Shown here: piece after piece, positions 47,040 through 63,796 of the stretch | Layout: every line of letters starts with the position of its first letter | Position numbering within the stretch: the stretch's first letter is position 1 | Assembly (NCBI GenBank): GCA_965223435.1 | Contig: CBDCWQ010000023.1 | Location: forward strand, 930,607 to 994,606 | DNA: 64,000 bases | Direction: 5' to 3' | From: Myxococcota bacterium | GTDB lineage: Bacteria > Myxococcota > Kuafuiibacteriia > Kuafuiibacteriales > Kuafuiibacteriaceae | Translations under genes and position numbers: made by a program | Notes under the pieces: generated by a model | Databases searched by the model: none | Told to the model about the DNA's origin: nothing | What the model saw: only the letters and a program-made list of their open reading frames with translations

Positions 47040-47794
47040 GGTGTGACTCGACGCCGGCGGTCGAGACTATCATCGAGGGCCGCGCCCGCGACATCGACGG
47101 TTTCAATGTCAGACGCGTTCTGCCTTCTAGCGCACGTCGTCTCGTTGGCCCGTTCATCTTCTTCGATCATATGGGGCCGGCGGCGCTCCCCCCTGAACGG
47201 GGCATGGAGGTGCGTCCACATGCGCATATCAACCTTGCGACCGTGACTTATCTGTTTGAGGGGAAACCGTGCACCGTGACAGCGTCGGCTCTCACCAGCC
47301 CACACGTCCGGGTGCGAACAATTGGATGACGGCCGGCCGAGGCATCGTGCATTCGGAGCGGACGAGTGTGGAGGAGCGCGCGCGGGCGCCTCATTTACAC
47401 GGTATTCAGCTGTGGGTGGGCCTTGCCCAAAGAGCACGAGGAGACCGAGCCGGAGTTCCATCATCATCCCGCCGAGACGTTGCCCGATCTCGAGCGTGGC
47501 GGTGTTCACCTGCGTGTTCTCGCGGGCTCCGCCTTAGGAATGACCTCGCCGGTGCGTACGTTCTCGCCGCTCTTCTATTTGGAAGCGGTGATGTCTACGG
47601 GCTCGAAGGTGGATATGCCGACCGAACAGGACGACCGTGCGGCGTACGTTGTGTCGGGACGTGCCCACATCGGCCCTGAGGTTGCGGACGCGGGGCGCAT
47701 GTTGGTGTTTTGTGCTGACCGGCCAGCCTCGATCGAGGCTGTGACCGACCATCTATTCAAGAAAATTGCCGTTGCAGGTCATTGCGTCGCTTAG
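47040..47794 (+). pseudogene. Second pirin-family gene, interrupted by at least two frameshifts.
   Basis: '[18 protein letters not shown]', '[19 protein letters not shown]' and the C-terminal cupin lie in three different frames. Confidence 0.55.
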
Positions 47795-48329
47795 GTGGCA
47801 AATGACTCCCAGGAACCATAGCTGCGTGGCCATAGAGGCCGAGTCCTCTCACCGGGTATCGAAGATGATTGTTTGGTGCCGGCGGTGGCGTATAGGGCGC
47901 GCTGATGCCGAGGCCTGTCATACGAAAGGTCTTACGGTTCCGCTTTGCTTTAATCGATTCTCGCCCCTCCAACTGTGCGGCGCGAAGGGTTGTGTCCGCT
48001 CCGGCGCAAGGGTCGCAACCTAGATCGTCTGCGCGGCTATTGTTCGAATGCCCTGCGCCATCCTGGTACCAGGATGTCATCCGTGATGCTCGCCATCCAT
48101 CCGCGGCAGCTTCCTCAGGTTAGTCGCCCGGTCGTATGATATTCCAAGCTTCAGGTACGTGTGCCCGCGTACAGTGACGCGTCTCCGGACTTTGTCGTGG
48201 AGCTCAAGACGTATGCTCCGCCAAAGTAGCCCCGGGTGGCCGTGCAGGCCGCGCCGCCGTTTGGCGTTTTGGCTCGAAACCACAACGACCATGGCATGAC
48301 CGGGCGTTACCTCGAAGGAAAGCAGGGGA

Positions 48330-48562
48330 CAGGTATATGTCTTCTGAGAATCTCTTGCCTTACGCATTGCTGCTTTGTCGAAGTAGTTGGCCACCGCGAC
48401 CTCCGCTCCCGGCAGTTTAGGCACTCGATTTGGATCCCGAACGATCAGCCGGGTGGGAATATTCAGGTTAGCGAGCTTGCGGGCGACGCTTCCGCCCAGG
48501 TTTCCGGTGGCGCCGGTGATTGCGATGGGTACTTTGATCGTGAGGTCTCCCTTAGAAAACAA
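48330..48562 (-). pseudogene. NmrA/SDR-like NAD(P)-binding protein, N-terminal fragment only.
   Basis: 'IAITGATGNLGGSVARKLANLNIPTRLIVRDP' then loss of similarity. Confidence 0.45.
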
Positions 48563-48641
48563 AAGTTACGCGAATACAACGCTGCGCATCGACAACGAGC
48601 CCATGTCAAAACCTTCGATGGGAAAACGTGCCGTGTCGCCA

Positions 48642-49127
48642 TCATCGGTTGCGCCGTACACATAGCCACCAATGGTCGGGCGTGGGATGGGACCTTTTTC
48701 CGTCATCGGTGTCGGGCCACATTGAAAGGAGACGTAGCTCATCACGTTGCTCAAGGGCGTTCTTAGTCTCTTTATCAAAGCGCTGGGCCCACGACGGAGA
48801 TTCAACGATAGTTCCCCGGTGTACACGCCCCAAAGCGTCCTGGAGGTTATGTGCGACGTTGCCACTGCCCAAGATCAAGGCCCCCTCCTCGCGGAGCGCA
48901 CCCAGTGACCGGGCGAGGGTCAAATGCCCCTTGGCATCGAGTCCTCGGTCGATGCTGAGTTGGACCACCGGGATGTTGGCCTCAGGGTACATCCAGCGAA
49001 GTACACTCCATGTGCCGTGATCGAGGCCCCACTCGGTATCGACCGATGCCCGTTCCCGGCCGAGCAACTGAGTCACCTGCTTGGCAAGCTCTGGCCGGCC
49101 CGGAGCCGGGTAGCTGATCTCGTACAA
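48642..49127 (-). pseudogene. Class III extradiol (DOPA-4,5-dioxygenase/YgiD-like) dioxygenase lacking its N-terminal third.
   Basis: 'YPEANIPVVQLSID...ILGSGNVAHNL'. No in-frame N-terminal region upstream. Confidence 0.5.
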
Positions 49128-49369
49128 CGCCGAGGAAATCCAACGAAGTCATGGATGGTCGCCGGATTTGAGATGCCGGTCAGATAGGGTCCCATCGTTA
49201 GTGGCAGTGGGATGCGCTGCGGATCGAGTTGACGCATGTTGACATGCAGTCACACTCGCGAACGCCAACAGCAGCATGACACGACTCAACGTCCTGTTCC
49301 TACCTGTCGAGCCGTACGACGATCTTGTGTGCTTTAGGCCATTCGTTTTCTCGCTTTGCATTTTACCCC

Positions 49370-49750
49370 CTAAAACATTGTGTTGGTATTGGCGGATCGT
49401 TCGGGAACAATCTGGAGTACATCCCAGTGTTCGATGATCTTGCCGTGCTTATCGAATCGAAAAATGTCGATGCCGGCATAGTCCTGATCACCGGGCCACT
49501 CTTGGTAGCAGTGCAGTACAACGTATTCACCTTCTGCGATGGCTCGCTTGAAAGTCACACGCTTGCCTGGATATTCCCTAGCCATCCGTTCGAAATATGC
49601 GATAAAGGCCTCCTTGCCGTCAGCGACCTCCGGGTTGTGTTGAATGTACGCCTCTCCTACGAAGCGCTCGACTGCTTCGGCGGGCTTTGACTGGTTGAAC
49701 ATCAAGTCATAGAAGGCCTTAGCGTTTTTCTTGTTCTGTTCCGCGGACAT
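49370..49750 (-). CDS. SnoaL-like/NTF2-fold protein.
   Basis: 126 aa. '[30 protein letters not shown]' is typical of the ketosteroid-isomerase-like fold. Confidence 0.6.
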
Positions 49751-50384
49751 ACAGCTGGATCCTTTCTCTCATATTCCTAGCCTGCGAGTCGAATTTCACA
49801 AATCTCAAAGTGATAATTCGCAGTTGAGAATTACTAAATTTGGTCCTAGATCGCTTGATATGAAGTCTGAGGGAGCCGCGTCGGATGCTCGCAATCCATT
49901 AAGGGGAATCAACCTCAGCCACCTGCCAGTCCTAGATGCCTTGCTCCGACATCGCAGCGCCTCGGAAGCGGCCACTGAGTTGGGTGTTACGCCATCGGCC
50001 ATAAATTCTTTCACGATGGCGCCCGAAATCGTTGCGGCCACCGACGCGGTCTTGACGTTACCAACCCGACTCGCGCGCGCCGTTGCGGCGGTTCCGGTCT
50101 ACGCGTGCTCGAACCTCCCCTACCTTATCCAAGTTTCTCTGTCGACGTTTCTTGGAACCGAGGACGCGAGGACGAAGCGCTCAGGTGGATCCGCGCGCAA
50201 CTTCACTCCACCGCGGCGAAGGCCTTCGGCCGGTCGTGATCGCCATTGTTCAGGCGGAGGCCGGAACTGCAGCTCCATTCTCATTGCGTCAATTCGCAGC
50301 GAAGCTTTCATTGAGAAAAACGCAGTCAACCCGATCCTAAGCGATCGAAATGATCGAACTTTTCGATTTCGAGGCGGGCCCTAA
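49731..50384 (+). pseudogene. LysR-family regulator remnant: the HTH is fused to a short C-terminal piece, with an internal deletion.
   Basis: 'INLSHLPVLDALLRHRSASEAATELGVTPSAINS' is a LysR HTH. Divergent from the SnoaL-like gene. Confidence 0.4.
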
Positions 50385-50585
50385 CTAAAGCAGGTCATGT
50401 GTAATATCATTTCTGTTAGCGCCCGAGGTTGTTGATGCCCTGAGCAAGTCCCGCGGTCGCGCTATTCGGTGGATCTCAAGTGAACGGTGTACTGAGTGCC
50501 GTCACTAAACTTGGCGTAGTGCTTGAGTCGTCATAGGGTCTTCCCGCAGGAGGTGGCGGGTAGGCGCTGACACACCAACCCGCCG

Positions 50586-50990
50586 GTGCTCCGCAAAGAA
50601 TTGATCGAAAAAATACGAAGCTCCTTAGGGATGGTTCATGCGCCGATGGAGATCAAGCAGTGGCAGCAAAATTTTCCAACGGTGGAGATTGCGCGCCCGT
50701 GTCGCTGTCCCCGCTGCCAGACGGGATCTCGGCGTCCAGGTTTCAGGGCCATGGGGGCGTTCAACGGGACGTCTGGGGCCCTTCGGAGGTTGGAGCTGTC
50801 CCGGAGATTGTCTCGGTGCGTCTTCGACGGTTTCGGTGCCTGGCTTGCTATGCGGTCATTCGCGTGGGCCCTCGAGGCTTGTTTGCGCATCGTCGATACA
50901 GCGCAGGGGCCATCGGACTGGCCCTGGCCCTTTGGGCGGTATTCAAAGTAAAGACCCACAAAGCGCGCACGGCCGTCAGTCCTTGAAGGG
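50586..50990 (+). pseudogene. Zn-ribbon gene of the decayed transposition-module copy, frameshifted.
   Basis: 'CRCPRCQ' and 'RRFRCLACYAVIRVGPRGL...IGLALALWAV' lie in two frames. Paralogous to 60298-60714. Confidence 0.45.
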
Positions 50991-51279
50991 AAGTCGCGGT
51001 CGAAACGAAGTATCGCTGGCCATCCCTCATCCGCTGGGCACGGGTTGCCACTCAGGGACATTTTTGGCCCCTCTTACGACGGGCATCTGAGGCCACGGTC
51101 CTTCGTGAAGCAACCGCAGGCGCTGTTCGCACTGTCGTAGCAGCGCTTCCGGAGTCATCGCTAGGTCCGTTGACGATGCGACAAGTATTTGCAGCCGCTC
51201 AAACAGAAGCGAGGACCTCATAGCGGGTACACAACAGCCATAGCCCCCCCCACCGTCTGCGATCGTAGTCAAGGAACGG

Positions 51280-52566
51280 ATGCAGGGGGACCTTCATTTC
51301 TTTGACGGGCTGCATGACTACGGCCCTAAAAGAAAGGAAGGAAGTATGTCCCCATCGTTGAAACCCAAAGACCACGCCGAAGCCGTGGCGCTCTTCCGTG
51401 CCCAGGTTATTGGTCCACTGACCGCTCGGTCGCTCTCACACGGTGATCTGGCCGAGGAGCTTCGCCATCTCGGCAAGAGACGGTTCTGTCCACCTTGGTT
51501 ATCCCATAGCCGCACCTATTCGGTGACGACATTGGAGCGCTGGTACTACGACTACAGAAAACTCGGATTCGAAGGACTTCGACCGCGTCCCCGTTCCGAC
51601 CGCGGTTACGCTCGAGCCTTGACTCAAAAGCAGCGCGATCTGATCTTACAGATTGCCCAGGAACGACCCGAGGTAAGTGTCACCGTGCTCGTCCGCACAC
51701 TTGTCGCAGACGGCCGGCTCAACAAGGGCGAGGTCTCTGAAAACGACCGTTCGCCGTTTACTGGCGGACCATGGCCTTGACCGCCAAATGCGGCGTCAAC
51801 GCATCAAGGGACAAAGGCGACGCTGGCAGGCGGCTTTGCCTGATAACCTTTGGCACGCCGATGTTTGCCATGGTATGTCGCTCAAGAATCACGGTCGAAC
51901 GACCCCATTGCGTGTCCATGCGATTCTCGATGACGCATCTCACTTTATCGTGGCTATTCGAGCCTTCTCGTCCGAGCGTGAGGTTGACATGCTTGAGCTC
52001 CTCGTTCAGGCACTTCGCCGTGCCGGGCCGCCGCAAACGTTGTACTTGGACAACGGCTCAACATACCGAGGTGAGGCTCTTTCCCTAGCCTGCGTACGCA
52101 TGGGTATTCGTGTGGTCCACGCGTCGATCAGCATTATCATGGGGCACCCCACGCGGGTTTGGTGGGCCGATGCCCGGCTGATGTTTATGCCACGGACGGC
52201 TTACCGCGTGACCCCATCACAGATGAGGACCTGCGTCGTGCACTTACGGTTCGGAACTCGCGACGAGTCCGACGCGACGGCACACTCTCGGTCGGCGGGC
52301 TCGACTGGGAGCTTGAGGCTGGATATCTCGCTGGGAAAATCGTAACCGTCGCACGGACACTATTCGAGCCACAGGTGCCGCCCTGGGTTGAGGTGGGTGA
52401 TAGACGATACATTGTCAAACCAGTCGATCCCATCGCCAACGCGATGCGGCCAAGAAGGAAAACGAAGAACCGACCAAGGGGGGTCGATGCCATTCCCTTT
52501 GACCCTGCGGGCGCGCTCCTTGATCGCATGCTTCACCGAGACCTCACGAAAGGAGGTGAGCAATGA
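51280..52566 (+). pseudogene. Mu/TniA-type DDE (rve) transposase with at least two frameshifts. Paralog of 61033-62367.
   Basis: The N-terminus, the 'LWHADVCH...LDNGSTYRGE' core and the C-terminus are in three frames. About 45% amino-acid identity to the intact copy. Confidence 0.65.
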
Positions 52567-53040
52567 ACCGTCCGCTGTGGCCTTCACATTTCGGATTAAA
52601 AACACCGCCCTTTGCGAAAGACCTCCTGGACAGCCAGCTGTGGCTGCCCTCCGCCCGAACAGCCGTCGTCGACGATATCGTACAGGCCGTTCGGGAACGG
52701 GAGCATGTCTTACTCGTAGGAGAACCCGGTGTGGGAAAGACGTGCTCCCTCAGAGCGGCAAGACATCGTCTTCCCGAGGCTGGATTTCGTCTCACGTATT
52801 GTCACAACGCAACCCTGGGCCGCCGCGACTTTTACCGGCAGCTCTGCCTCGCCCTCGGACTTGCTCCCAAGGCCACCGCTGCCTCGGTTTTCTACGCCAT
52901 CAACACCCATGTCGAGGATTTGGGGCGAGAGCGTATGCATCCGGTCTTCCTCATCGACGAAGCCCATTTCCCAAAATCGTCGATCGTGAGCTTCTGGGAC
53001 ACGTGCTCGAGGCCGACGCAAGACCCCAGCTCTCCTAGCC
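52563..53040 (+). pseudogene. TniB/ExeA-like AAA+ ATPase, frameshifted and truncated ~200 bp before the IS66 insertion.
   Basis: 'LLVGEPGVGKTCSL', 'FLIDEAHF', then a frame change. Confidence 0.6.
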
Positions 53041-53259
53041 CACTCACGAAATCTAACTCGGAATAGCTCTCCAGGCTGCCGCCTGTTACACCTCGATCAG
53101 CTTGACCGCAAAGCCACTGCTCACCTTGAGCGGTAACACCATTGAAGAAGAAAGTTACCGGCTGCATGAGGTCACCTTAAGCGCCAAGAGCAGAAGGCAG
53201 AAGCGTCGAAAGGCCGGGGCCGCTGCGCGTAAGATGTCGTCGTAACGTAACTGTTCTTT

Positions 53260-53622
53260 TTGGGGCGCCTAGGCGAGCGTGATCGCATACAGCATGCTCG
53301 GTACATGAGCGAATCCTACTTCACAAAGGCGGATGGCAAGGCGCTTGTTTCTGAATGGCGGAGAAGCGAATTGAGCAAGGGAGAGTTTTGTCGAGTTCGA
53401 GGTGTGTCGAAACCGAAGCTGGTGTACTGGACGAACCAGGTTGGGGTCTCGCCGAGCTTCATTGAAGTCACAGCACCATCCCGTAACAAGAGGAGAGAAT
53501 CTGACAGCCTCGGTTTTGAGGAATCCGTCGAGGTCTTGATTGGAGATGCCTTCGTTCGCTTTCCGAGTCAGCCGGGGGTTGTGGGGGAGATCCTTGATAT
53601 ACTTATGGGTGGCGACCGTTGA
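53260..53622 (+). CDS. IS66 TnpA-like (Orf1) HTH protein.
   Basis: 120 aa. First gene of the IS66 triplet. Confidence 0.7.
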   Translation: MGRLGERDRIQHARYMSESYFTKADGKALVSEWRRSELSKGEFCRVRGVSKPKLVYWTNQVGVSPSFIEVTAPSRNKRRESDSLGFEESVEVLIGDAFVRFPSQPGVVGEILDILMGGDR

Positions 53623-53987
53623 TTCCTTCCGGTACTCGGGTCTTTTTCGCAGTCGAGCCGGTTGATCTTCGTCGTTCTTTCGACGGATTGGCAGCAACTG
53701 CGCTTCAAGACTTAAAGATTGATCCGCGCCACGGAGGCCTGTTTGTGTTCCTTAACAAGCGATGCAACCAAGTGCGCGTGCTCTTTCGTGATCCGCACGG
53801 CTGGTGCATTCTTGCGAAGCGACTCGACCGAGGACGATTTCGTCGTCCCCGGTTCGAAGATGGTCGGTTCTGTTGGGAAATGGACACGAAATCTATGCTT
53901 CGTTTTTTAGATGACATCGACCTTTCGTCGATGAAACGAGGACGGAGAACACAAACATCGCCGACGCTGAAGCTTTTGGAAACTTAG
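53619..53987 (+). CDS. IS66 TnpB (Orf2).
   Basis: 'IPSGTRVFFAVEPVDLRRSFDGLAA...VFLNKRCNQVRVLFRDPHGWCILAKRL' is the IS66 Orf2 signature. Confidence 0.8.
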   Translation: MIPSGTRVFFAVEPVDLRRSFDGLAATALQDLKIDPRHGGLFVFLNKRCNQVRVLFRDPHGWCILAKRLDRGRFRRPRFEDGRFCWEMDTKSMLRFLDDIDLSSMKRGRRTQTSPTLKLLET

Positions 53988-54119
53988 CGTTTTCTGCTTG
54001 CCTCGTAAGCTTTGAGCTTGTAACTCCAATTCATCTCGAAGACGCGTATCAAGAAGGCGACTACCGAGCTGGTCAACTTCACGGACCTCATCGAAGTCCT
54101 TTCGAACAAGGGCGGCGAA

Positions 54120-55685
54120 ATGCCCTCAAAAGAGGCGCTTGCGGCCGTTCTTCAGACCGCTCAGAAGGTCATCGAAGATCAGGCTGTCGAGATCCACCAT
54201 CTACAAAGGCAGTTGTTCGGACGGCGCTCGGAGAAGGTACTTCTGGGCCAGCAGAGTCTCTTTGTCGACACGCTCGAAGCTGTAGCCTTGCGAACGCCGG
54301 AGCCTGAGCCAGAAGAAGAAGATACGCCCGGGCCAAAGAAACGAAAAAGGAAGAAGCGGCGCGCCCCGCTCAAGCCCACACGCACCGAGAAGATCTGTGT
54401 TGCTGACGAAGACCGGCCCTGGCCTCAATGCGGTGAGCCTCGGTGCACCATCGGTCACAACCGGAGTCTCGTTGTCGAGTACACGCCACCGAAGTTTGAG
54501 GTTATCGAATACTTGCGTGAAACCATCGCGTGCAGGCTGTGCGAAGGTGAAGTGAAAAAAGCTCCAGCACCCTCAACCCATGCCCGGGACGGCGCTTGGC
54601 CGGGACCAAAGCTTCTCGCTGCTCTGATAACGAACAAGACGGTGGATGGGCTTCCACTTCGTCGTACGCAGAAGGTTTTCAGACGCACCGGGGGCAATTT
54701 CGCAATCTCCACGCTCAGCCGCTGGGAAAGCTTTGGGCACGAAATCCTTAAGCCGCTCTGTCATCGTATCACCGAGCTCGTCCGCAAGTCCGACATGATT
54801 AACCTCGATGATACATCTATTCGCGTCCGAGACCGAGACGTCGAGGGCGGCGTGGTGAATGGGAAGATGTGGGTATTCGTAGGGCGGTACTTCGATCCCG
54901 GAGGCGACCTTTCGAAGACTTTGACCTATGTGGCTTACCAATACGCGCCCACGTGGGAGGCAGAGCACCCCGAGAAGTGGCTTCGTGACTCCAAAGCAGT
55001 GCTTCAGGGTGATGCGTATCGGGGCTACGAACGGATCGCCGACGCGAACAGGGGTGATAAGGTTGGACGACTGCTCGCGGGATGCTGTATGCACGCACGT
55101 CGACCGTTCGTTCAAGCACTCGAATTCGGAGATACCGCGGCGCGTCCTTTTGTCGATGCGTTCCAGCGTATCTATCGAATCGAAGCACAGTGCAAAGAAC
55201 ATGCTTTGCTTGCCCCTCAGCGACTTGAGCGACGGCGCACCCAGAGTCTCCCCATTATGGAGGAAATCCTCGAGCACGCTGAGGCACTCAAGCCTATGCC
55301 TCTGCTCAAGCCCATGAAGCAAGGGGTGACCTACTTCACCAATCAGTGGGATAAGCTCAGACTTCCCTTTGCGATAGACGGCCGCCTCGAGATTGATAAC
55401 GGGGAGGCGGAACGGCGACTCCGCCGCATTGCTTCCGGAAGAAAGTCCTGGCTCTTTGCTGGCTCCAGGGGAGGCGCCGAGCGATTCGCCGATGTCCTTT
55501 CGGTTGTCTCCACCGCCGACGCGGCAGGCGTCGATTGTGGAAAGTACCTTCCTAGCATCATCGCCAACATCGACACTTGGCCGAACCGGGAGCTCGATCA
55601 GCTCTTGCCAGCCAACTGGCAAACCGCGCTCGAAGATTTCCTTCGCGAGAATAACATTCAGAACTCCACACCTGCTGTACATTGA
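54120..55685 (+). CDS. IS66-family transposase TnpC.
   Basis: 521 aa. Leucine zipper, CxxC zinc motif, IS66 DDE core. Confidence 0.85.
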   Translation: MPSKEALAAVLQTAQKVIEDQAVEIHHLQRQLFGRRSEKVLLGQQSLFVDTLEAVALRTPEPEPEEEDTPGPKKRKRKKRRAPLKPTRTEKICVADEDRPWPQCGEPRCTIGHNRSLVVEYTPPKFEVIEYLRETIACRLCEGEVKKAPAPSTHARDGAWPGPKLLAALITNKTVDGLPLRRTQKVFRRTGGNFAISTLSRWESFGHEILKPLCHRITELVRKSDMINLDDTSIRVRDRDVEGGVVNGKMWVFVGRYFDPGGDLSKTLTYVAYQYAPTWEAEHPEKWLRDSKAVLQGDAYRGYERIADANRGDKVGRLLAGCCMHARRPFVQALEFGDTAARPFVDAFQRIYRIEAQCKEHALLAPQRLERRRTQSLPIMEEILEHAEALKPMPLLKPMKQGVTYFTNQWDKLRLPFAIDGRLEIDNGEAERRLRRIASGRKSWLFAGSRGGAERFADVLSVVSTADAAGVDCGKYLPSIIANIDTWPNRELDQLLPANWQTALEDFLRENNIQNSTPAVH

Positions 55686-55864
55686 GCGCAGACCTCAACG
55701 TTACACCATGAAGCGGGCCCGGCTAGACGCCCCAAAAAGAACAGTTACATTCATGGAGTCTGCGGGCTGGTTCCGATCAGGGATGAGTTGCGTTCGGGCG
55801 TACCGGTGCCTCGGGCGCTGTGCCTCGGGCGCCGGAATACGGGGAATCAAGAGGGCGTGCGCAT

Positions 55865-57103
55865 TCAAGATGTGTCCACCTTTTCCGGGGCTCGCAACAA
55901 GAGCTCGGCCAATTCGATCGGTGATAGAGGCCGGAGACAGTGCATGCGGCCCCCCGCGCAGGCCGGACAGGCCATGACGTCGATTCCGGTCTGATTGAAA
56001 AATCGCTCCCACCATGGAGTGGTTGCCTCGGGCGCCGTCTCGCTCTTCGGTCGTGAGGATGTATCAGATTTGTCGTTGATCAAGCGGAATGCTGCCTGAA
56101 GCTTGGTGTTTACGTTGCTCGAAGCACAGATTCCATAGTGCCTGATTCGGACGAAGCCATGGGGCAAGACGTGCAGAAGAAATCGGCGCAGAAACTCGAC
56201 GGCGTCGAGCGTCATGCGCTTCTTTTTACAGCCATCGGTGTAGTCTTTGAACCGAAAATCGACCTTACCATCACCGACGTGGAGGATGCGGTGATTTGAG
56301 ATCGCAATGCGATGGGTATAATTCCCGAGATAGCGAAAAACCTGCTCCGCACCACCAAAGGGCGGTTTAGCGTAGACGATCCAGTCCTCGGCATAGAGGT
56401 TATTTTTGAGGGCGCGCCACGTGGTTTTGTCCGCAAGCTCGGCGGTGCTTCCTCCGAATTTCAGCTCGCCGCCCTTGTAGGCCCGTTCCAGTGCAGCTAA
56501 AAACTTTCCTCGGAAGAGTCGTCCGAGCACTTTGACGGGCAAAAGGTATTTCTCTTGGGCTGAGATCCAGCGTGTTCCGTCGGGGGACAGTCCGCCTCCG
56601 GTGACCACGCAGTGCACATGGGGATGAAAAAGAAGGTTCTGGCCCCAGGTGTGGAGGACCATCGTGAAGCCGAGCTGGGCGCCGAGATGCTTCTTGTCTT
56701 GAGCGATGGTCTGCAAGGTCTCTGACGCGGCGGCAAAAAGAATGTTGAAGAGGACCTTTTTGTTTCTGAGCGCGACCGGATTGAGCGCGTCTGGGATCGT
56801 AAAGACAACATGGAAATAGGGGACGGGAAGAAGCCGCTCGAGTCGCTGGGTGAGCCATTCGGCCCGCGCGGTATTTTGACACTTCGGGCAGTGCCTATCC
56901 CGGCAAGAGTTGTACGAGATACGCTGATGTTCGCAGGTGTCACACGCCTGCAAATGGCTGCCCAAAGCGGCCGTGTGACATTCCCCGATATGTTTCAACA
57001 CCGCTTCTTGGGCCGCCGAGGGGCGGTGCGCACGACGGTATTCCTCGCCGTGCGCACGCACCACGTCCGCGACCTCGAAACGAGGCCGGCTCTGTGAGGC
57101 CAT
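55865..57103 (-). CDS. IS91-family (HUH, Y2) transposase.
   Basis: N-terminal Zn-binding 'CDTCEHQRISYNSCRDRHCPKCQ'. 'HTWGQNLLFHPHVHCVVTGGG'. 'RYLGNYTHRIAISNHRI'. Confidence 0.85.
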   Translation of the reverse strand: MASQSRPRFEVADVVRAHGEEYRRAHRPSAAQEAVLKHIGECHTAALGSHLQACDTCEHQRISYNSCRDRHCPKCQNTARAEWLTQRLERLLPVPYFHVVFTIPDALNPVALRNKKVLFNILFAAASETLQTIAQDKKHLGAQLGFTMVLHTWGQNLLFHPHVHCVVTGGGLSPDGTRWISAQEKYLLPVKVLGRLFRGKFLAALERAYKGGELKFGGSTAELADKTTWRALKNNLYAEDWIVYAKPPFGGAEQVFRYLGNYTHRIAISNHRILHVGDGKVDFRFKDYTDGCKKKRMTLDAVEFLRRFLLHVLPHGFVRIRHYGICASSNVNTKLQAAFRLINDKSDTSSRPKSETAPEATTPWWERFFNQTGIDVMACPACAGGRMHCLRPLSPIELAELLLRAPEKVDTS

Positions 57104-57118
57104 CGATGACGACCCGTG

Positions 57119-58042
57119 TCAGCCGAGCTTCTTGCCCGCTTCAGTCCCCAGAAGGTCGAGCGGGCTTTTCACCCGGCCGATGTGTTCTAAGCTCACGTGA
57201 GTGTAGACTTGGGTGGCCCGGAGCGAGCTGTGACCCAGCAAAGCCTGGATGACAGCGATGTCTACACCGCTCTCTAAAAGATGCGTGGCAAAGCAATGAC
57301 GAAGGACATGCGGCGTCACCTTCTTTTGGATACCGGCTGAGGCGACGGCAAGGTGGAAGACTTGCCGGGCTGTCGTGGCAGAAATGTGCCCTGCCGCGCT
57401 CCGGCCGGGAAAGAGCCAGCTTTTCGGACGGTGTTCCCGAAAGTAGTCGCGAAGAACAACAAGAAAGCGTTGGGAAAGGACTGTGTAACGATCCTTTTGG
57501 CCCTTACCCGCGCGGACATGGATGAGCATTCGCTTGGAATCGATGTCCTCGGGCCGCAGTTGACAGGCTTCGGTAATCAGAAGTCCCGCCGCGTACAGAC
57601 TCATAAGCATCGCGTGATATTTTGGGCGGGTCACCGCATTCAGGAGACGCTGCACCTCGGTGCCGTTGAGGACAGAAGGTAGCTTTATCTTCTTTTTCTG
57701 GGTGGGAAGATGCTCGACCTCAATCGGTCTCTTGAGCGTTTTGGTGTACAGGAAGATAAGGGCGGCTCGTACCTGCCGGTAGGTCTCCCGCGAGCATTTT
57801 TTCTCATCGACCATGTACAGCAGGTACTGGCGGATTTCATCCTCACCCATTTGTGCGGGCGATCGCATATGATATTTGGCGAAAAGTTTCGCGTAAAGTA
57901 AGTAGATCTTCTGGGTCCAGGGGCTGTACCCTCCGAGCCGGAGATCGGTATGCATTCGTTCTCTAAGTTTTCCCATGATGTCCTCCTTGGGTGGGTTGTT
58001 TTGTGGTGACTCAACCGTCCAAGGGGGACGTCTCTTTTTCAA
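57119..58042 (-). CDS. Tyrosine recombinase (XerC/D-like phage integrase), adjacent to and co-oriented with the IS91-family transposase. Alternative start at 57979.
   Basis: 'HVLRHCFATHLLESGVDIAVIQALLGHSSLRATQVYTHV' is the catalytic R-H-R-Y region. Confidence 0.85.
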   Translation of the reverse strand: MKKRRPPWTVESPQNNPPKEDIMGKLRERMHTDLRLGGYSPWTQKIYLLYAKLFAKYHMRSPAQMGEDEIRQYLLYMVDEKKCSRETYRQVRAALIFLYTKTLKRPIEVEHLPTQKKKIKLPSVLNGTEVQRLLNAVTRPKYHAMLMSLYAAGLLITEACQLRPEDIDSKRMLIHVRAGKGQKDRYTVLSQRFLVVLRDYFREHRPKSWLFPGRSAAGHISATTARQVFHLAVASAGIQKKVTPHVLRHCFATHLLESGVDIAVIQALLGHSSLRATQVYTHVSLEHIGRVKSPLDLLGTEAGKKLG

Positions 58043-58102
58043 GCCTTGCGCGTTGACAAAGAGCTGTGGTTTCTTTGAACAGGCTACAATCGGGTACTTG
58101 GC

Positions 58103-58324
58103 ATGGAACCACCGCGCATTTTTTGTGGTTTCAACGGATTGATCGACGATGATATCTATGGATTGAGTTGCGTCGGCACGACGAGAGATCTCGAGCGGCT
58201 GGGGTTACAGCTTCAAGCCGGGATGCAGGTCGTGCTCTACGATTACGACGCTTTCGATTCTGGCCAGCCAGCCTGGATCTTGGCTGACGCTGTCGTCATA
58301 GAGAAAGATACGTGGGCCTTGTAG
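58103..58324 (+). CDS. Hypothetical 73-aa protein, followed by a hairpin terminator.
   Basis: Coding-like composition. No recognised domain. Confidence 0.35.
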   Translation: MEPPRIFCGFNGLIDDDIYGLSCVGTTRDLERLGLQLQAGMQVVLYDYDAFDSGQPAWILADAVVIEKDTWAL

Positions 58325-58395
58325 CGAAAGTCGATCCCAAGTCATTCAGGTGGGAGCCGCGTAAAGAGGAAAAATAAGTTCTAGCAGGAGAAGCT

Positions 58396-58419
58396 ACCGC
58401 GCGAAGCGCGGTTTCGTTC
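58396..58419 (+). terminator. Rho-independent-terminator-like hairpin ACCGCGC-gaa-GCGCGGT followed by TTCGTTC.
   Basis: Perfect 7-bp GC stem plus a U-rich tail, downstream of the 58103-58324 ORF. Confidence 0.5.
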
Positions 58420-58562
58420 AACGCCGGGAAACGCCACGAAACGGGTCGAGGCGCTCGGTTAGCTGTTTTTCCCTTTGTCGGGTCCGACCACGTTCGCAAA
58501 GCTGACTGAACCCTGTTCGCATAGGACTCGCCGTAGCTATCGGCTGTGATCTCTTTGTCTAT

Positions 58563-59840
58563 CTATTTCGGCTTCCTTCGGCTAACGGGTCGTTTCGATT
58601 TCTTGACGGCGCGCTTGCGTTTGGAGTTGGCCGGGCTCGGCGAGGGTTCGAACGACGGGGGTGTGAGCGCTTTCTTTCTTTCGACCCTCTCTCTAGTTCG
58701 TTCCAGTTCGGTGACCAACACAGCCTCATCGGGAAGCGTAGTCTTGTATTCCGTCGCGAGGACCTTGTTGGGAAGTCCTTCAAGGGCGTAGCGCGCTACC
58801 GCTGCGTTCTTCTTGGCGCATAGAATGAGACCGACGGGAGGATTTTCGTCTGGCAATGTCCAGTGCTCCCGCGCGTAGTTCAAGTACAAGTGCATCTGTC
58901 CCGCGTCCGCATGAGTGAGCTTTCCTAGCTTTAAGTCGATAATGATCACGCAGCGGAGCCGTCGGTGGTAAAAAAGAAGGTCCACACGAAACCACTGGTC
59001 GCCGATCCGTAGACGTTTCTGGCGGCCGATGAAAGCGAACTCGCCCCCAAGTTCGAGCAGGAAGCTTTCGAGGTGGAGGATGAGCGCCTCTTCGAGATCC
59101 GTTTCGGAGTACTCGTCCTTGAGGTCAAGGAACTCCAATAGTAGGGGATCCTTCACCTGCTCTTCGGGTGCCATGTGGTCTTCGGGCTTGCGTTTCTGAC
59201 CCTTGGTGAGCATGGCGGCTTTGTTCTTCGATAACAAGGTACGCTCGTAAAACTGAGAATTGATTTGGCGGTCGAGCTGTCGGATCGTCCAACCACCCCG
59301 CAACGCCTCCGCCTGATAAAAATCGCGTGCCTTCGGGTTGTCGACGGCCAGAAGACGGACGTAGGCCGACCAGGGCAGCGGAAAAAGAGCCAATAATAAT
59401 CCCGCCGATCCCGGAGATTGTGCAGACAGTGTCTGCACTTTTCGTTTGTGTCGACCGGCCACGGATTGTGCAGGCGGCGTCTGCACTATTTCCTGGTAGG
59501 CCAAGTAGAAGGCTCGCATCTGGAACAGGTTGCGCCGACCGAAGCCTCGACCAAAGCGTTCCACCAGGTCCGTCGATAGACGCTCAACCAGCGCCTGCCC
59601 GTAGGCCGCCCGCGATTTCCCACCTTGTTCATACTCAACAATGCGCCGGCCGACTTGCCAGTAGGCAGCGGTCATCACGGCGTTGACCGATCGTGCTGCG
59701 GCCTGGCGGGCCTCGTTGAGGAGTGATACGACTTCAGAAAGCACCTTATCGTACCCAGGGGGGTGACGTACCTTTGCGGTCTTTTTCTTGCGCGCTACTT
59801 TTTTGCGTGGTGGATCCTTTCTCTTCGTGGAGCGTTTCAT
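58563..59840 (-). CDS. YhcG-like DUF1016 protein (PDDEXK nuclease C-terminus), intact copy.
   Basis: 'AYWQVGRRIVEYEQ' N-terminal domain. 'IIIDLKLGKLTHADAGQMHLYLNYAREHW' nuclease core. Confidence 0.75.
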   Translation of the reverse strand: MKRSTKRKDPPRKKVARKKKTAKVRHPPGYDKVLSEVVSLLNEARQAAARSVNAVMTAAYWQVGRRIVEYEQGGKSRAAYGQALVERLSTDLVERFGRGFGRRNLFQMRAFYLAYQEIVQTPPAQSVAGRHKRKVQTLSAQSPGSAGLLLALFPLPWSAYVRLLAVDNPKARDFYQAEALRGGWTIRQLDRQINSQFYERTLLSKNKAAMLTKGQKRKPEDHMAPEEQVKDPLLLEFLDLKDEYSETDLEEALILHLESFLLELGGEFAFIGRQKRLRIGDQWFRVDLLFYHRRLRCVIIIDLKLGKLTHADAGQMHLYLNYAREHWTLPDENPPVGLILCAKKNAAVARYALEGLPNKVLATEYKTTLPDEAVLVTELERTRERVERKKALTPPSFEPSPSPANSKRKRAVKKSKRPVSRRKPK

Positions 59841-60297
59841 TAGACGGCCAGCTTCCCGAGAAAGCTCGTTATCATGTCTACCTCCCTTAAGCTTCTCTTT
59901 CTGTGCGGCATATGCGCAATCTCACCGCTCCGCTATACGCCGGGGGGCTTCCGGCCAAGAGAGTGCCATCGCTGGCGTTGTTTGCGGCAATGGCCAACGA
60001 CAACCAGCAAGTCGTACAAGATTTCTCGGACTCACCCTCACAGTTTATCGATCTATCACCTGGACATCCTGCGGATCCCTGGGTCTGGTACGTGTTAGCG
60101 AGCAGGCTTGATGAGGGCCCCGCGGCCCATTTCGATCCAGTAGTTTGAGGGTCAGGCCCTCCGGGCCCATCAGAGATGGGTTTTCTTGCAGATCCAGCTA
60201 TCTGAGGTAGTCCACACCGCCGAGGAGGGGAGCCGCCTGAGAGAAAAGGGCGACGAGGAGCCGAGATTTCGCCGTCCGGCTCCTCGTCTGTGCTCCG

Positions 60298-60714
60298 GTG
60301 GTTTTGCCGAAACGAAGCACGTCGAGAATCGTCCGAGTCTGTCTGAATATCAAGTATTGGATCGAAGGTCCGCCGAGGGTCGAGGAGGTCCGTCCCTCGC
60401 ATTGTCCGGGATGCCAAAGGCCCGGGGCGCCGCTGGGGGAAAATCTCCGGCTCGTCGGGCATGGCATTCGGTGCCGAGAGCTCCGAGGTGTGCTTTGCGC
60501 CGATGAGCCGCCCGTCCTTCGTCTTCTCTTTGTGCGTCGGTTTCTGTGCCGGGACTGTGGCGCGGTGTGCACGGTCGTGCCGCAGGAGGTCGCACCCGGT
60601 CGGCTCTATTCCATCGCTACGATCGCGCTCGCCCTGGTGCTGTTCGGCGTCCAGGGCGTCCCGGCGGAAGAAATTTTCTCCCGTCTAAGCCCCATCGCAA
60701 GGCAGGGGGTTTGA
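60298..60714 (+). CDS. Zn-ribbon protein (zf-ISL3-like CxxC...HG...RRFxCxxCG), first gene of the transposition module. GTG start.
   Basis: 'HCPGCQRPG...VGHGIRCREL...RRFLCRDCGAVCTV'. Conserved in the decayed copy. Confidence 0.5.
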   Translation: MVLPKRSTSRIVRVCLNIKYWIEGPPRVEEVRPSHCPGCQRPGAPLGENLRLVGHGIRCRELRGVLCADEPPVLRLLFVRRFLCRDCGAVCTVVPQEVAPGRLYSIATIALALVLFGVQGVPAEEIFSRLSPIARQGV

Positions 60715-61032
60715 TCACCGAAGATGGCGCGTTCTGGACCGCTGGGTCCGCTCGATTCGCCAGGCAAAGCTTTTCTCTAAGATGACCTTGGCCTTCTCGG
60801 AAGCCCCCCCCTCCGTCCGTGCCGCCGCCGCGGGCTTTGCCCAAAAACTCGGTGCGCTCTCGAGACGGATCCGAGGCCCCCTGGAAGAGACGGTTGTCGA
60901 CGGCGCGATGATGGCCATCTGAGCCTGAGCAAGGAGGACGACAAGCCCACCTACGAGGTCCACTCCCGCCCCCCAGCCATTCAAGGCATGACCGTCCGTG
61001 CAGTGACTGCGCTGCAGAAAGGATGAAACGCA

Positions 61033-62367
61033 ATGGATGACCTTTTACCCAAAGACCACCGGGAGGCGGTGGCCCACTTCCGGGCGGGTCTGATCGGCCC
61101 GCTCGTTCACCGTGATTTGACTCGGGGGGAGCTTCGCGCGGAGCTCCGCGCACTCAGTCAGAAGCGGTTTCGACCACCGGGGGCCAAGGCCACGCGACGA
61201 TACGGTGTAAGCACCTTGGAGCGCTGGGTGTATGCCTACAAGCGGGACGGATTCTGTGCACTTATGCCCGCCCCGCGTCAGGACCGGGGTCGAGGTCGTG
61301 ACCTCAGCGATGAGCTCAAGACCTTGCTCCTAGATATCCGGCGGACCCACCGTTCGGCCTCGGCCCCATTGATCGTGAAGACCCTCGAGGAAATCGGCGT
61401 CCTCGAGCGAGGGCAGGTGACGTCTACCACGGTACGGCGTCTCTTTTGCGAGCACAACCTGCCTCGCCTCTCGAAAAAGAAGCCGGTCCCGAAGAGCCAT
61501 CGTCTGCGGTGGCAGGCGGAGCACCCGAATGGGCTCTGGCAGGGGGACGTTTGTCACCTCGCTCCGATCGAGGTCGGGGGCCAGCGTCTTCCGGTCCGGG
61601 TGCATGCGCTGATCGACGATTGCTCTCGGTACATCGTCGCGATCGAAGCGCACCACCAGGAGCGGGAGGTCGACATGCTGGGGTTGCTGGTGCGGGCCCT
61701 CCGCCGACACGGCGCTCCGGACGCACTCTATCTCGACAACGGGAGCACCTACCGGGGGGAGACCCTCGAGGTGGCGTGTCGAAGGCTAGAGGTTTCTCTT
61801 TTCCATCCCCCGCCTCGCTCGCCGGAGTCCCGCGGAAAAATCGAACGCTTCTTCCGCTCCCTACGCGAGGGCTGTACGGACTTTCTTGGGCCCATCGCCT
61901 CGCTTCATGACATCAATGTGAGGCTCTTTGCCTTTGTGGATGAGCACTATCACCAACGGCCGCACGCGGGTCTCTTTGGCCGCACACCGGCCAGCGTCTT
62001 TCGGGCCGCAAAGACGCGCGCCCTCTCGGAGGAAAGGTTGCGGGAAGCGCTCACTGTACGCGTCAGAAGACGCGTACGTCGGGACAGCACCCTATCCATC
62101 GAGGGCAAGGAATTCCAAGTGGACCAGCATTTCCTCGCGGGAAAAGTCGTCCACGTCGCCTACGCCATGGTCGATGACCCCATCCAGCCTTGGGTTGAGC
62201 ACCAAGACCGCACCTTTGCACTCGAAGCCATCGACCCGGTCAAAAATGGAAAACGAAGAAGGGCCCGCATCGAGGAGACGGCAAACAAAAAGGAGCTCTC
62301 CTTCGATCCGAACGGCGCCTTGCTTAACCGAGCCCGACGAAACATCCGAAAGGAGACCCGCGAATGA
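61033..62367 (+). CDS. Mu/TniA/TnsB-type DDE (rve) transposase.
   Basis: N-terminal HTH, 'LWQGDVCHLAP...ALIDDCSRYIVA...LYLDNGSTYRGE...ESRGKIERFF' DDE core, Mu-transposase-like C-terminus. Confidence 0.8.
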   Translation: MDDLLPKDHREAVAHFRAGLIGPLVHRDLTRGELRAELRALSQKRFRPPGAKATRRYGVSTLERWVYAYKRDGFCALMPAPRQDRGRGRDLSDELKTLLLDIRRTHRSASAPLIVKTLEEIGVLERGQVTSTTVRRLFCEHNLPRLSKKKPVPKSHRLRWQAEHPNGLWQGDVCHLAPIEVGGQRLPVRVHALIDDCSRYIVAIEAHHQEREVDMLGLLVRALRRHGAPDALYLDNGSTYRGETLEVACRRLEVSLFHPPPRSPESRGKIERFFRSLREGCTDFLGPIASLHDINVRLFAFVDEHYHQRPHAGLFGRTPASVFRAAKTRALSEERLREALTVRVRRRVRRDSTLSIEGKEFQVDQHFLAGKVVHVAYAMVDDPIQPWVEHQDRTFALEAIDPVKNGKRRRARIEETANKKELSFDPNGALLNRARRNIRKETRE

Positions 62368-63170
62368 GACCCACCGAGCTTCGCCACTTTGGCTTCAAAA
62401 CCACTCCTTTTTCCAAGGAGATTTCCGATCAAAACCTCTGGCTGCCTCCGTCCAAGGCCGTCCTTGTGGACGACCTCTGTCAGGCCCTTACGGCCAAAGA
62501 ATCCGTCCTCCTCGTCGGAGACCCCGGCGTCGGAAAAACCTGCGTCCTCAGGGCCCTCCGGCATTGGTTGGGGCAGGGAGGATTTCGGCTCACCTACTGC
62601 TCCAACGTGACGCTCGGCCGGCGGGATTTCTATCGCCAGCTGTGTCATGCGCTGGGGCTTTTGCCCAAAGCATCCGCCGCGGCCGTCTTTGCCGCGGTGG
62701 CCAGTAACGTCGAGGAACTCACCAAGGAGAAAGTGTATCCGGTATTCTTACTTGATGAGGCGCACTTGATGCATCAGGACGTCTTGGACCATCTCCACAT
62801 TCTGATGAATTTCGACTGGGACAGTCGAGCGCTCCTTTCTCTCCTGCTTGTGGGGCTGCCCGAGCTGGACGACCGACTCCGACTGAGAAGGAATCGTTCG
62901 CTCTATAGCCGTCTCAGGCATCGCTTCTTCATCGAGGCCCTCACACCGGAAGATACCACCACCTATTTGCAAAAGCGTTTGGCCGTCGCGGGCGTCACGC
63001 GAGAGGTCTTCACCTCCGATGCGATCGCCATGATTCATGAGGCGGCGCTCGGAAGCCTGCGTGACATCGATCGCATCGCGGCCCGGGCGATCAAGGTCGC
63101 CGCGCAGAAGAAAAGTAAGCTGGTGGAGCGCCATCATCTGATCGACCTCCACGAGGAGGAGACATCATGA
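62364..63170 (+). CDS. TniB/ExeA-like AAA+ ATPase transposition partner, 4-bp overlap with the transposase.
   Basis: 'VLLVGDPGVGKTCVL' Walker A. 'VFLLDEAHLM' Walker B. Confidence 0.8.
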   Translation: MRPTELRHFGFKTTPFSKEISDQNLWLPPSKAVLVDDLCQALTAKESVLLVGDPGVGKTCVLRALRHWLGQGGFRLTYCSNVTLGRRDFYRQLCHALGLLPKASAAAVFAAVASNVEELTKEKVYPVFLLDEAHLMHQDVLDHLHILMNFDWDSRALLSLLLVGLPELDDRLRLRRNRSLYSRLRHRFFIEALTPEDTTTYLQKRLAVAGVTREVFTSDAIAMIHEAALGSLRDIDRIAARAIKVAAQKKSKLVERHHLIDLHEEETS

Positions 63171-63370
63171 CACCACCGAAAAAGAACGCGCTGAGCATTC
63201 CTCTGCCACCGTTTACCCCGGACGAAGCCCTCCGCCTCGTCCATTTCCTCGAGAACGCGGTCGCGGCCATCTGGAAGGCGCATGGACCGAAGATGTCCGA
63301 GCTTCTCCTTGATCGCTTCTGCGAACGCCAGGCAGACAATTCAGACCAAGAGCAGGCATACGAACGCTAA
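63167..63370 (+). CDS. Small hypothetical protein (67 aa), ATGA-coupled to the ATPase gene.
   Basis: Overlapping start and stop. No domain recognised. Confidence 0.4.
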   Translation: MTPPKKNALSIPLPPFTPDEALRLVHFLENAVAAIWKAHGPKMSELLLDRFCERQADNSDQEQAYER

Positions 63371-63454
63371 GTCCATCATCCACCGGTTTCCCCTAGGCGC
63401 CTCCGTGATGGGCATCGGAAAGCTGGATCGCTGCCCCATCATATAGACGGAGCG

Positions 63455-63796
63455 GTAACAGTCGATGACGACGAACCGACGCGAATCGCAGCGACTCAAT
63501 TTCTCGAAGACGAAGGCTATCGGGTGTCGGTCGCGCAGAACGGTGAGGAGGGCCTTGCCAAATTTCAGGCGAGCACTCCGCACCTGGTTATTACGGACAT
63601 CCAGATGCCCCGCATGAACGGCTGTGATCTGCTTGAAAATATACGACAAACTTCGCCTTCGATGCCCGTTATTCTCATCACGGCCCACGCCACAATCGAC
63701 GCTCGGCGAGAGGCGGAAAGGCTTCAGGCGAACGGCTTTGTGAACAAGCCGATCGACCTCGATGATCTTTTAGAAACGGTCCAACGTTTGCTCTGA
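63455..63796 (+). CDS. CheY-like receiver-domain protein. No canonical start codon precedes 'VTVDDDEP'; the 5' end may be disrupted by the adjacent transposon.
   Basis: 'VTVDDDEPTRIAATQFLEDEGYRVSVAQNGEEGLAKF...HLVITDIQMPRMNG...ILITAH'. The open frame extends back to 63371 without an ATG, GTG or TTG start. Confidence 0.7.
   Translation, partial: VTVDDDEPTRIAATQFLEDEGYRVSVAQNGEEGLAKFQASTPHLVITDIQMPRMNGCDLLENIRQTSPSMPVILITAHATIDARREAERLQANGFVNKPIDLDDLLETVQRLL

Follow-up and report, generated by a model that had tools for sequence, protein, structure and literature searches.

Two DUF6431-encoding loci of a Myxococcota bacterium as probable members of a family of compact, ATPase-assisted DDE transposons

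DDE transposons assisted by an ATPase, such as Mu, Tn7, the CRISPR-associated transposons and IS21, are the main models of regulated target capture and the basis of programmable DNA-insertion tools. A 64,000-nt stretch of contig CBDCWQ010000023.1 from a Myxococcota bacterium (assembly GCA_965223435.1, positions 930,607 to 994,606; hereafter the window) raises the question of whether this class includes a further kind of element. An original prediction, made from the letters of the window, placed there two paralogous copies of an unusual transposition module, copy A and copy B, comprising genes for a zinc-ribbon protein (gene 1), a Mu/TniA-type DDE transposase (gene 2), a TniB/ExeA-like AAA+ ATPase (gene 3) and a small protein (gene 4). 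Are these genes parts of a mobile element, where does it begin and end, and what might its two accessory proteins do? Through sequence profile searches, comparative genomics and structure models we found that both loci are probably members of one large family of compact four-gene bacterial transposons of 3.4-3.7 kb, and we put the probability of this reading, including the mechanism proposed below, at about 0.8. The window itself holds a transposon and a relic, and the interest lies in the family: a TnsB-like transposase and an AAA_22 ATPase are fitted into about 3.4 kb in a widespread element, and its gene 1 protein offers a possible function and a setting for Pfam DUF6431.

Element limits, copy number and target duplication

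Homologues of the copy A transposase are abundant (2440 at E<1e-10 among 8000 scored), and many lie on metagenome contigs of 3.4-4.6 kb. A genome scan restricted to one genome per species confirmed 373 stretches, from which 80 loci were kept. Of 90 loci, 85 have a gene 1 homologue directly upstream of the transposase gene and 87 have the ATPase gene after it, the loci that break the layout being truncated contigs. Distant relatives on a Pandoraea plasmid and on the Acidithiobacillus caldus megaplasmid keep the gene order and sizes at 32-36% transposase identity, and the A. caldus gene upstream of the transposase is annotated as a 'DUF6431 domain-containing protein'. Two canonical DUF6431 proteins picked at random (P0143 and P0180) stand in the same module, made up of DUF6431 (176-182 aa), rve (441 aa), AAA_22 (264 aa) and a small protein (65-72 aa), and the four-gene layout around canonical DUF6431 proteins is seen in Proteobacteria and metagenomes. 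The module, and with it the zinc-ribbon gene, is therefore conserved well beyond this genome, as the original prediction had expected.

Several copies per genome are present in Sorangium strains, Archangium minus and metagenome-assembled genomes of Myxococcota, Actinomycetota, Chloroflexota, Gemmatimonadota, Planctomycetota and others. Sorangium So ce134 carries seven identical copies of a 3704-bp element, each with different flanks and with direct target duplications, whose ends read TGTTACTGAGCA...GCTCGGTAACA; identical copies with target duplications likewise attest mobility in other Sorangium strains and metagenome-assembled genomes. A closer relative of copy A (transposase 67% identical), 3372 bp long and with the ends TGTTAGCGCCCAGG...CCTCGCAACA, is bounded by comparison of five contigs. 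Across elements the four conserved genes are contained in 3368-3708 bp. These comparisons show an element that has defined limits, occurs in multiple copies and duplicates its target, and that encodes a DDE transposase, its AAA+ partner and two conserved accessory proteins. The identical insertions in several genomes suggest that the family has been active recently.

The family termini have the form 5'-TGT...ACA-3'; their inverted repeats are short and imperfect, and several subterminal repeats of the TGATGGS type are present. In seven elements the motif [TA]GATG[GC][GC], chosen by eye, occurs 16.3 times per kb in the terminal 140 nt and 1.0 times per kb in the interior, or 32 observed occurrences in the terminal 140 nt against 1.9 expected from the interior density, at conserved positions. 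As a strict regular expression for the ends missed most loci, boundaries were mapped pairwise instead. Among 26 insertions the target duplications measure 5 bp (11), 6 bp (4), 7 bp (2), 8 bp (1) and 4 bp (1), and the remaining seven insertions show little or no match between the flanks; this is partly because the right boundary was misplaced by a few bases in four Sorangium So ce513 loci, of which three show 5-bp duplications by eye. Duplication length varies among the sites of L004-L034, with clear 4-, 6-, 7- and 8-bp cases even for otherwise identical copies. Nineteen target sites could be rebuilt from the 26 insertions, and they share no consensus beyond GC-richness.

Two arrangements of copies were seen besides single insertions. 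In CAVTRY010000014.1 (L025/L026) and in Sorangium So ce375 (L033/L035, NZ_CP150335.1) two copies lie tail-to-tail about 3 kb apart, an arrangement, seen in these two unrelated genomes, that is compatible with intramolecular replicative transposition, recombination between copies or a composite transposon and that also argues against strong target immunity. In Sorangium So ceGT47 the gene 1 region of one copy (L012:4110-5581) is broken by a repeat of about 1.47 kb, of which a further copy lies at L018:8929-10401 and which is presumably another insertion sequence.

The four proteins

Pfam recognizes the domains HTH_32, of helix-turn-helix (HTH) type, and rve in the 444-aa transposase of copy A, and the residues D172, D235 and E271 are invariant in 27 transposase sequences, as are F424, D425, P426 and L431 in the tail. 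The best curated hidden Markov model (HMM) is that of IS481 (NF033577; 183.2 bits, under its cutoff of 224), so that at the level of sequence the enzyme is IS481-like and not of the predicted Mu/TniA type; it also matches PHROG 310, 'transposase', at 1.6e-42. An AlphaFold model (predicted local distance difference test score, pLDDT, 81.4) has N-terminal helical domains, an RNase-H core, a beta-barrel at residues 341-400, a low-confidence or disordered linker at 414-423 and a helix at 426-443. In model comparisons the fold is closest to TnsB, and the long multi-domain matches are to TnsB, IstA and MuA, all three of which are transposases working with an AAA+ partner; the extra stretch of about 120 aa formed by the beta-barrel and tail aligns with the same three proteins. 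The transposase thus appears to be IS481-like in sequence and, as modeled, TnsB/IstA/MuA-like in fold.

For the ATPase, matches to Pfam AAA_22 (7e-24) and to PHROG 296, 'DNA transposition protein' (9e-23), agree with the AAA+ partner of the original prediction. The NCBIfam model that fits it best is that of an ExeA-like family, with a score far under the cutoff, and no match to the TniB family of Pfam was obtained at E<=0.01. The IS21 models score low as well, with 19.5 bits for the ATPase (NF038214; cutoff 200) and 27 bits for the transposase (cutoff 160).

Gene 1 of copy A is split. Its first open reading frame (ORF), at 60298-60714, encodes 138 residues and is rich in cysteine, and an extra G in a run of five (60705-60709) sets the rest in frame +1, where the sequence continues beyond the stop at 60714 as ...RRWRVLDRWVRSIRQAKLF...MMAI up to a stop codon. 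Deleting one G restores an ORF of 207 aa that ends at 60922. The joined protein finds P0002 (207 aa) at 61% identity over 99% of the query, and P0001, encoded on the contig of a close twin of copy A described below, is 98% identical and reads in frame across the frameshift site. We considered a programmed frameshift and excluded it, because of this in-frame read-through in P0001 and because gene 1 is a single ORF, mostly of 195-228 aa, in 49 distinct relatives. The frameshift of copy A is most simply explained as a mutation or a homopolymer error.

The gene 1 ORF of copy A matches Pfam DUF6431 (PF20020) weakly (E 3e-4), and both it (20.9 bits) and P0002 (21.7 bits) miss the gathering threshold of 26.6 bits; of 30 relatives, however, 24 match DUF6431 at E<=0.01, and six match Zn_ribbon_ISL3, in line with the ISL3-like zinc ribbon proposed originally. 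A gene 1 profile retrieves proteins with precomputed PF20020 assignments, and the alignment of gene 1 with DUF6431 has the common signature CPxC...HG...RRFxCxxC...PRRxY...RRW. Searched against 1.84 billion representatives, the profile reaches 3142 protein clusters at E<=1e-3, of which 986 pass E<=1e-10. The profile relation, together with the same gene neighbourhood, leads us to regard the gene 1 family as homologous to DUF6431. The protein, of about 200 aa and encoded 47-190 nt upstream of the transposase, has a zinc ribbon with four cysteines and, after it, a helix-turn-helix bundle in the confident model of P0002 (pLDDT 89.7). That model has no fold match to TniQ or TnsD, and the TniQ family of Pfam gives no match at E<=0.01; together with the target sites that lack a consensus, this speaks against the suggestion that the protein is a minimal TniQ-like targeting factor.

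The gene 4 product measures 60-100 aa in the family, and that of copy A obtains no Pfam match. Its core is conserved (...EAL.LV..LE....IW..HG..M...), and most relatives bear a distinctive C-terminal tip: a final Phe preceded by acidic residues is present in 21 of 41 distinct products, compared with 1.4% of control ORFs ending in Phe, and 10 of the 41 end in PF, compared with 0.34% of controls. Examples are DDDDLPF, DQDLPF, DDLDLPF and LDDDIF, with tips of the forms [LI]PF, IDF and DIF (surveyed loci L020:8120-8308, L059:3031-3312, L073:3259-3537, L084:3082-3282, L089:3180-3386, L082:5618-5842 and L091:7794-7991), and proteobacterial products end in PHPPF, DDPPF or IDDPF. The C-terminal hexapeptide DDDIPF of SSB, a single-stranded DNA-binding protein, is conserved and docks many replication and repair proteins (PMC5872125, PMC3632105, PMC5531588), and the acidic tip of gene 4 products resembles it in sequence.

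The two copies and their surroundings

The original prediction had bounded the two modules by their genes (50586-53040 and 60298-63370), and the elements themselves reach further on both sides (Table 1). A repeat search on 59700-63700 of the window alone returned only short, unconvincing pairs, and the ends of copy A became clear only because multi-copy relatives were compared: they align with those of the 3372-bp relative (five contigs, L084-L088) and of the 3704-bp Sorangium element, so that the terminal repeats sought at the element ends could be placed. The outer sequence of copy A is TGTTAGCG...GGTAACA, and the motif GATCCAGC is mirrored between 60191-60205 and 63415-63429. All four genes are co-oriented, with 4-nt ATGA overlaps at the gene 2/gene 3 and gene 3/gene 4 junctions; the overlaps noted originally as a sign of coupling are thus present, and the ATPase is likely to be translationally coupled to the transposase. 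Copy A had been called intact, which holds for most of the element but not for the split gene 1, nor is it framed by a target duplication. Scans of the region with Rfam and for promoters and terminators gave nothing above chance.

Table 1. Coordinates of the two elements and of adjoining features in the window
Feature	Position	Strand	Remarks
Copy A, nearly intact element	60093..63460	+	3368 bp; termini TGTTAGCGAGCAGG... / ...GAGCGGTAACA; ends set by alignment to relatives
Copy A, left end	60093..60297	+	terminal repeat; subterminal [TA]GATG[GC][GC] and GATCCAGC motifs
Copy A, gene 1	60298..60922	+	DUF6431/ISL3-type zinc-ribbon and HTH protein, ~207 aa; split by extra G
Copy A, gene 2	61033..62367	+	DDE transposase, 444 aa; HTH_32 and rve; D172, D235, E271; predicted C-terminal beta-barrel and tail helix
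Copy A, gene 3	62364..63170	+	AAA+ ATPase, 268 aa; Walker A GDPGVGKT at residue 52, Walker B LLDEAH at residue 129
Copy A, gene 4	63167..63370	+	small protein, 67 aa; no acidic ...PF tip
Copy A, right end	63371..63460	+	aligns with right ends of L086 and L089; motifs ~20 and ~49 from tip
Receiver-domain gene, 5'-truncated by copy A	63461..63796	+	reads VDDDEPTR... from first base past element
Copy B, decayed element of a different lineage	50414..53138	+	~2725 bp; left terminus TGTTAGCGCCCGAGG secure, right terminus GAGCGGTAACA putative
Copy B, gene 1 pseudogene	50586..51223	+	frameshift and in-frame stop
Copy B, transposase pseudogene	51358..52527	+	three frames; lacks residues 259-301 (including catalytic E271); by tblastn
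Copy B, ATPase fragment	52563..52988	+	residues 1-141; remainder of gene and gene 4 deleted
IS66-family element, complete	53247-55748		tnpA 53260-53622, tnpB 53619-53987, tnpC 54120-55685

Copy A was predicted to have inserted site-specifically at or near the 5' end of a receiver-domain gene. The GTG-started receiver ORF matches Pfam Response_reg only from profile position 27, and the in-frame codons upstream of that GTG match the usual start of the domain. Since the right end of copy A abuts the receiver codons VDDDEP, the gene was truncated by insertion of copy A within it, with the first few codons gone; this position inside the gene and the 19 target sites without a consensus do not fit site-specific insertion. 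Metagenome scans for an uninterrupted version of the receiver gene and for the left end of copy A gave no match. Copy A has a twin on a second large contig, which belongs to this assembly or to one closely related to it. Between copy A and the twin, identity reaches 99% for the transposase (405 residues aligned), 99% for the ATPase and 100% for gene 4.

Searching the window with the copy A proteins (tblastn) recovered zinc-ribbon, transposase and ATPase matches in the same order in copy B, as had been predicted: the zinc ribbon at 50616-50983 in two frames (34-43% identity), the transposase in three frame-shifted pieces (44-49%) and the ATPase at 52569-52988, residues 2-141 only (59%). Copy B is a dead relic with internal deletions. 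Its fragments are 57-73% identical to elements of other genomes as against 34-59% to copy A, and because of this closer foreign affinity A and B are best seen as separate lineages of one family that were acquired separately, and not as duplicates, so that the description of the two as paralogous copies has to be given up. The putative right terminus of copy B (GAGCGGTAACA, at 53138) is identical to the last 11 nt of copy A. The 53-nt segment at this end (53086-53138) begins with TGTTAC and finishes with GTAACA; these facing hexamers could be due to chance or a trace of a rearranged end.

Beyond copy B lies the complete IS66 element that had been predicted there, with ORFs for tnpA, tnpB and tnpC; its inverted repeats, each of 35 nt, occupy 53244-53278 and 55717-55751 and are 89% complementary. 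The 8 bp on either side of it, GTCGTAAC and ATTCATGG, differ, so that it has no target duplication. The original prediction held that IS66 had hit copy B. The losses of copy B are internal, however, and because IS66 starts (repeats 53244/53247) about 108 nt past its putative end, IS66 is more probably a neighbour than the cause of the truncation. It is followed on the minus strand (55865-58042) by a 412-aa IS91-family Y2 transposase (Y2_Tnp and Zn_Tnp_IS91) directly downstream of a 307-aa tyrosine recombinase, and then by a YhcG/DUF1016 PD-(D/E)XK nuclease gene at 58563-59840. IS66, IS91, the recombinase, the nuclease and the two DUF6431 elements together form a junkyard of mobile elements some 13 kb long. 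In the region directly upstream of copy B (47700-50400) the genes look fragmentary, for example a LigB-dioxygenase ORF that matches only profile positions 79-231, and the ORF at 49731-50384 has a LysR-like HTH with aberrant downstream sequence, which suggests that gene decay reaches beyond the transposons into this region.

Competing readings, a possible mechanism and relation to known systems

Several observations weigh against the reading of both loci as members of a transposon family with the mechanism proposed here. Neither copy in the window is framed by a target duplication, the flanks being gtacg / gtcga for copy A and atttc / ccatt for copy B, and the right terminus of copy B rests solely on the 11-nt identity. 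Because copy A has a 99%-identical twin on another contig, recombination between the twins that swapped their flanks, or an adjacent rearrangement, would plausibly explain its mismatched flanks. The subterminal motif was picked from the same ends on which its enrichment was tested. With the transposase as query, sequence searches of PDB chains returned only retroviral integrase cores, and the copy A proteins have no match to Mu-transpos_C or TniB in Pfam. The acidic tip of gene 4 is missing from copy A (...DQEQAYER), where L089, the closest relative with a full-length gene 4, has ...SDLPF at the homologous stop codon, from the 85-aa Sorangium version (...DGDDRLPTPID), and from an Anaeromyxobacter-type sub-clade in which gene 4 is replaced by a gene for an unrelated protein, about 131 aa long and with the C-terminus ...PRQVPLL or ...LQLRLL (L036:6246-6647, L041:3949-4344, L042:4125-4520, L047:3175-3570, L048:3028-3417 and L062:2110-2505). 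As copy A and these two sub-clades lack it, the tip is unlikely to be essential in all lineages. The steps of the mechanism are drawn by analogy with Mu A/B, Tn7 TnsB/TnsC and IS21 IstA/IstB, and the family may already carry a name in ISfinder or TnCentral, which lay outside the searched sources.

What else could these loci be? That they are targeted transposons in the style of Tn7 or Tn5053, inserting at the 5' ends of genes under the direction of the zinc-ribbon protein as a minimal TniQ/TnsD-like selector, is suggested by the transposase fold closest to TnsB, the AAA_22-type ATPase resembling TnsC and TniB, a modal duplication of 5 bp as in Tn7 and Tn5053 and the location of copy A next to the 5' end of the receiver-domain gene; TniQ proteins, too, begin with a zinc ribbon. 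We nevertheless consider this unlikely, as the TniQ profile finds no match at E<=0.01, the 19 rebuilt sites have unrelated flanks and no positional consensus, genomes hold several copies at unrelated sites, and copy A lies within the receiver gene, whose first codons it removed, and not upstream of it. Less likely still is an ordinary IS481-family insertion sequence in which the zinc-ribbon, ATPase and small genes are passengers with no part in transposition. The IS481 equivalog HMM does give the best sequence match at 183 bits, TG...CA ends are common to IS481 and IS3 (PMC10045372) and insertion sequences with passenger genes are known (PMC6305408). That score is nevertheless under the family cutoff of 224, the transposase has the additional beta-barrel and tail that align with TnsB, IstA and MuA, and, because the order, spacing and ATGA overlaps of the three extra genes are kept across elements from Myxococcota to Proteobacteria, even where transposase identity falls to 32-36%, these genes are not readily seen as cargo.

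The matches to PHROG 310 and 296, together with TG...CA ends and a 5-bp duplication as in Mu, might also point to the remnants of a Mu-like transposable prophage of which only the A/B transposition genes survive. This is highly improbable, for the identical multi-copy insertions, which have target duplications, limit the complete unit to 3.4-3.7 kb, the element contains no phage structural genes, and many metagenomes yield it as a contig of its own of about 3.5-4 kb. The last candidate, an immobile chromosomal gene cluster that was anciently duplicated, could draw on the missing target duplications of both window copies, and it is refuted by the identical copies with target duplications at many sites in several genomes and by the closer affinity of copy B to elements of other genomes than to A. 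The family of four-gene transposons accordingly remains the reading we prefer.

By the analogies named above, the N-terminal HTH domains of the transposase would bind the subterminal repeats and pair both ends, and the ATP-bound ATPase would coat the target DNA and then capture and activate the transposase through its conserved C-terminal tail helix, which follows the disordered linker, with strand transfer staggered by 5 bp. The zinc-ribbon/HTH protein would most likely act at the ends as an element-specific DNA-binding subunit or regulator, in the manner of IS1 InsA or IS3 OrfA; since the targets look random, this role is preferred to that of a target selector, which is less likely. For the small fourth protein we propose that it may dock host proteins of replication and repair that interact with SSB, such as PriA and the chi subunit, onto the transposition intermediate. 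The passage of Mu transposition to replication-restart proteins offers a precedent for this idea (PMC3334882, PMC3325207). None of the four ORFs encodes a second nuclease or a resolvase. If the likeness to the SSB tail is real, gene 4 may reveal how a transposon recruits host replication and repair proteins.

The literature searched holds no description of the element or its proteins, and DUF6431 is named there only in passing, in two papers. The sequences are already in databases and Pfam holds DUF6431; what is added here is apparently an undescribed member of the ATPase-assisted DDE class. We tentatively go one step further: the DUF6431 elements could represent a distinct, unstudied lineage of such transposons. 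Two of their proteins would then be accessory factors unmatched in Mu, Tn7, Tn5053, Tn552 or IS21, namely a zinc-ribbon/HTH subunit whose fold has no solved relative and a small adaptor that mimics the SSB tail and recruits PriA, the chi subunit of the clamp loader, RecQ and other members of the host SSB interactome. Should this doubtful but attractive possibility prove true, the SSB-mimic tip would be a built-in route to replication or repair at the transposition intermediate.

How do these elements stand among known systems? In contrast to Tn7 and the CRISPR-associated Tn7-like transposons, they have no TnsA, no homologue of TniQ or TnsD and no cargo, and are not targeted through attachment sites or guide RNAs; they measure 3.4-3.7 kb, their transposase is IS481-like in sequence with no detectable Mu-transpos_C, and they carry DUF6431 and small-protein genes that are not known in Tn7. 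No TnsA or TniR domain is found in any of the four ORFs, which sets them apart from Tn7 and Tn5053. They differ from IS21 in having an ATPase of the AAA_22/ExeA type rather than the IstB/DnaC type and four genes instead of two, and from Mu, Tn552 and Tn5053 (TniA-TniB-TniQ-TniR) in lacking a resolvase, TniQ and phage genes. Elements of the ISBli29 and ISArsp14 type were considered as possibly the same and rejected, for they are Tn552-like and carry a resolvase and Mu-transpos_C (PMC6305408; bioRxiv 10.64898/2026.01.09.696371), neither of which the DUF6431 element has. With IS481 the element shares the best match of its HTH and catalytic core, the D..D(35)E arrangement and TGT...ACA ends, here TGTTA...TAACA with duplications of 4-8 bp and a mode of 5; unlike it, members of IS481 have a single gene in about 1-1.3 kb and lack the C-terminal beta-barrel and tail and an ATPase partner. 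Finally, gene 1 recalls IS1 InsA and IS3 OrfA in encoding a DNA-binding protein just upstream of the catalytic gene, and differs from them in that its product is not fused to the transposase by frameshifting and the transposase has HTH domains of its own. The domain logic of InsA, a zinc ribbon with an HTH, is that of gene 1, and ISL3 transposases carry a ribbon of this type at their N-termini.

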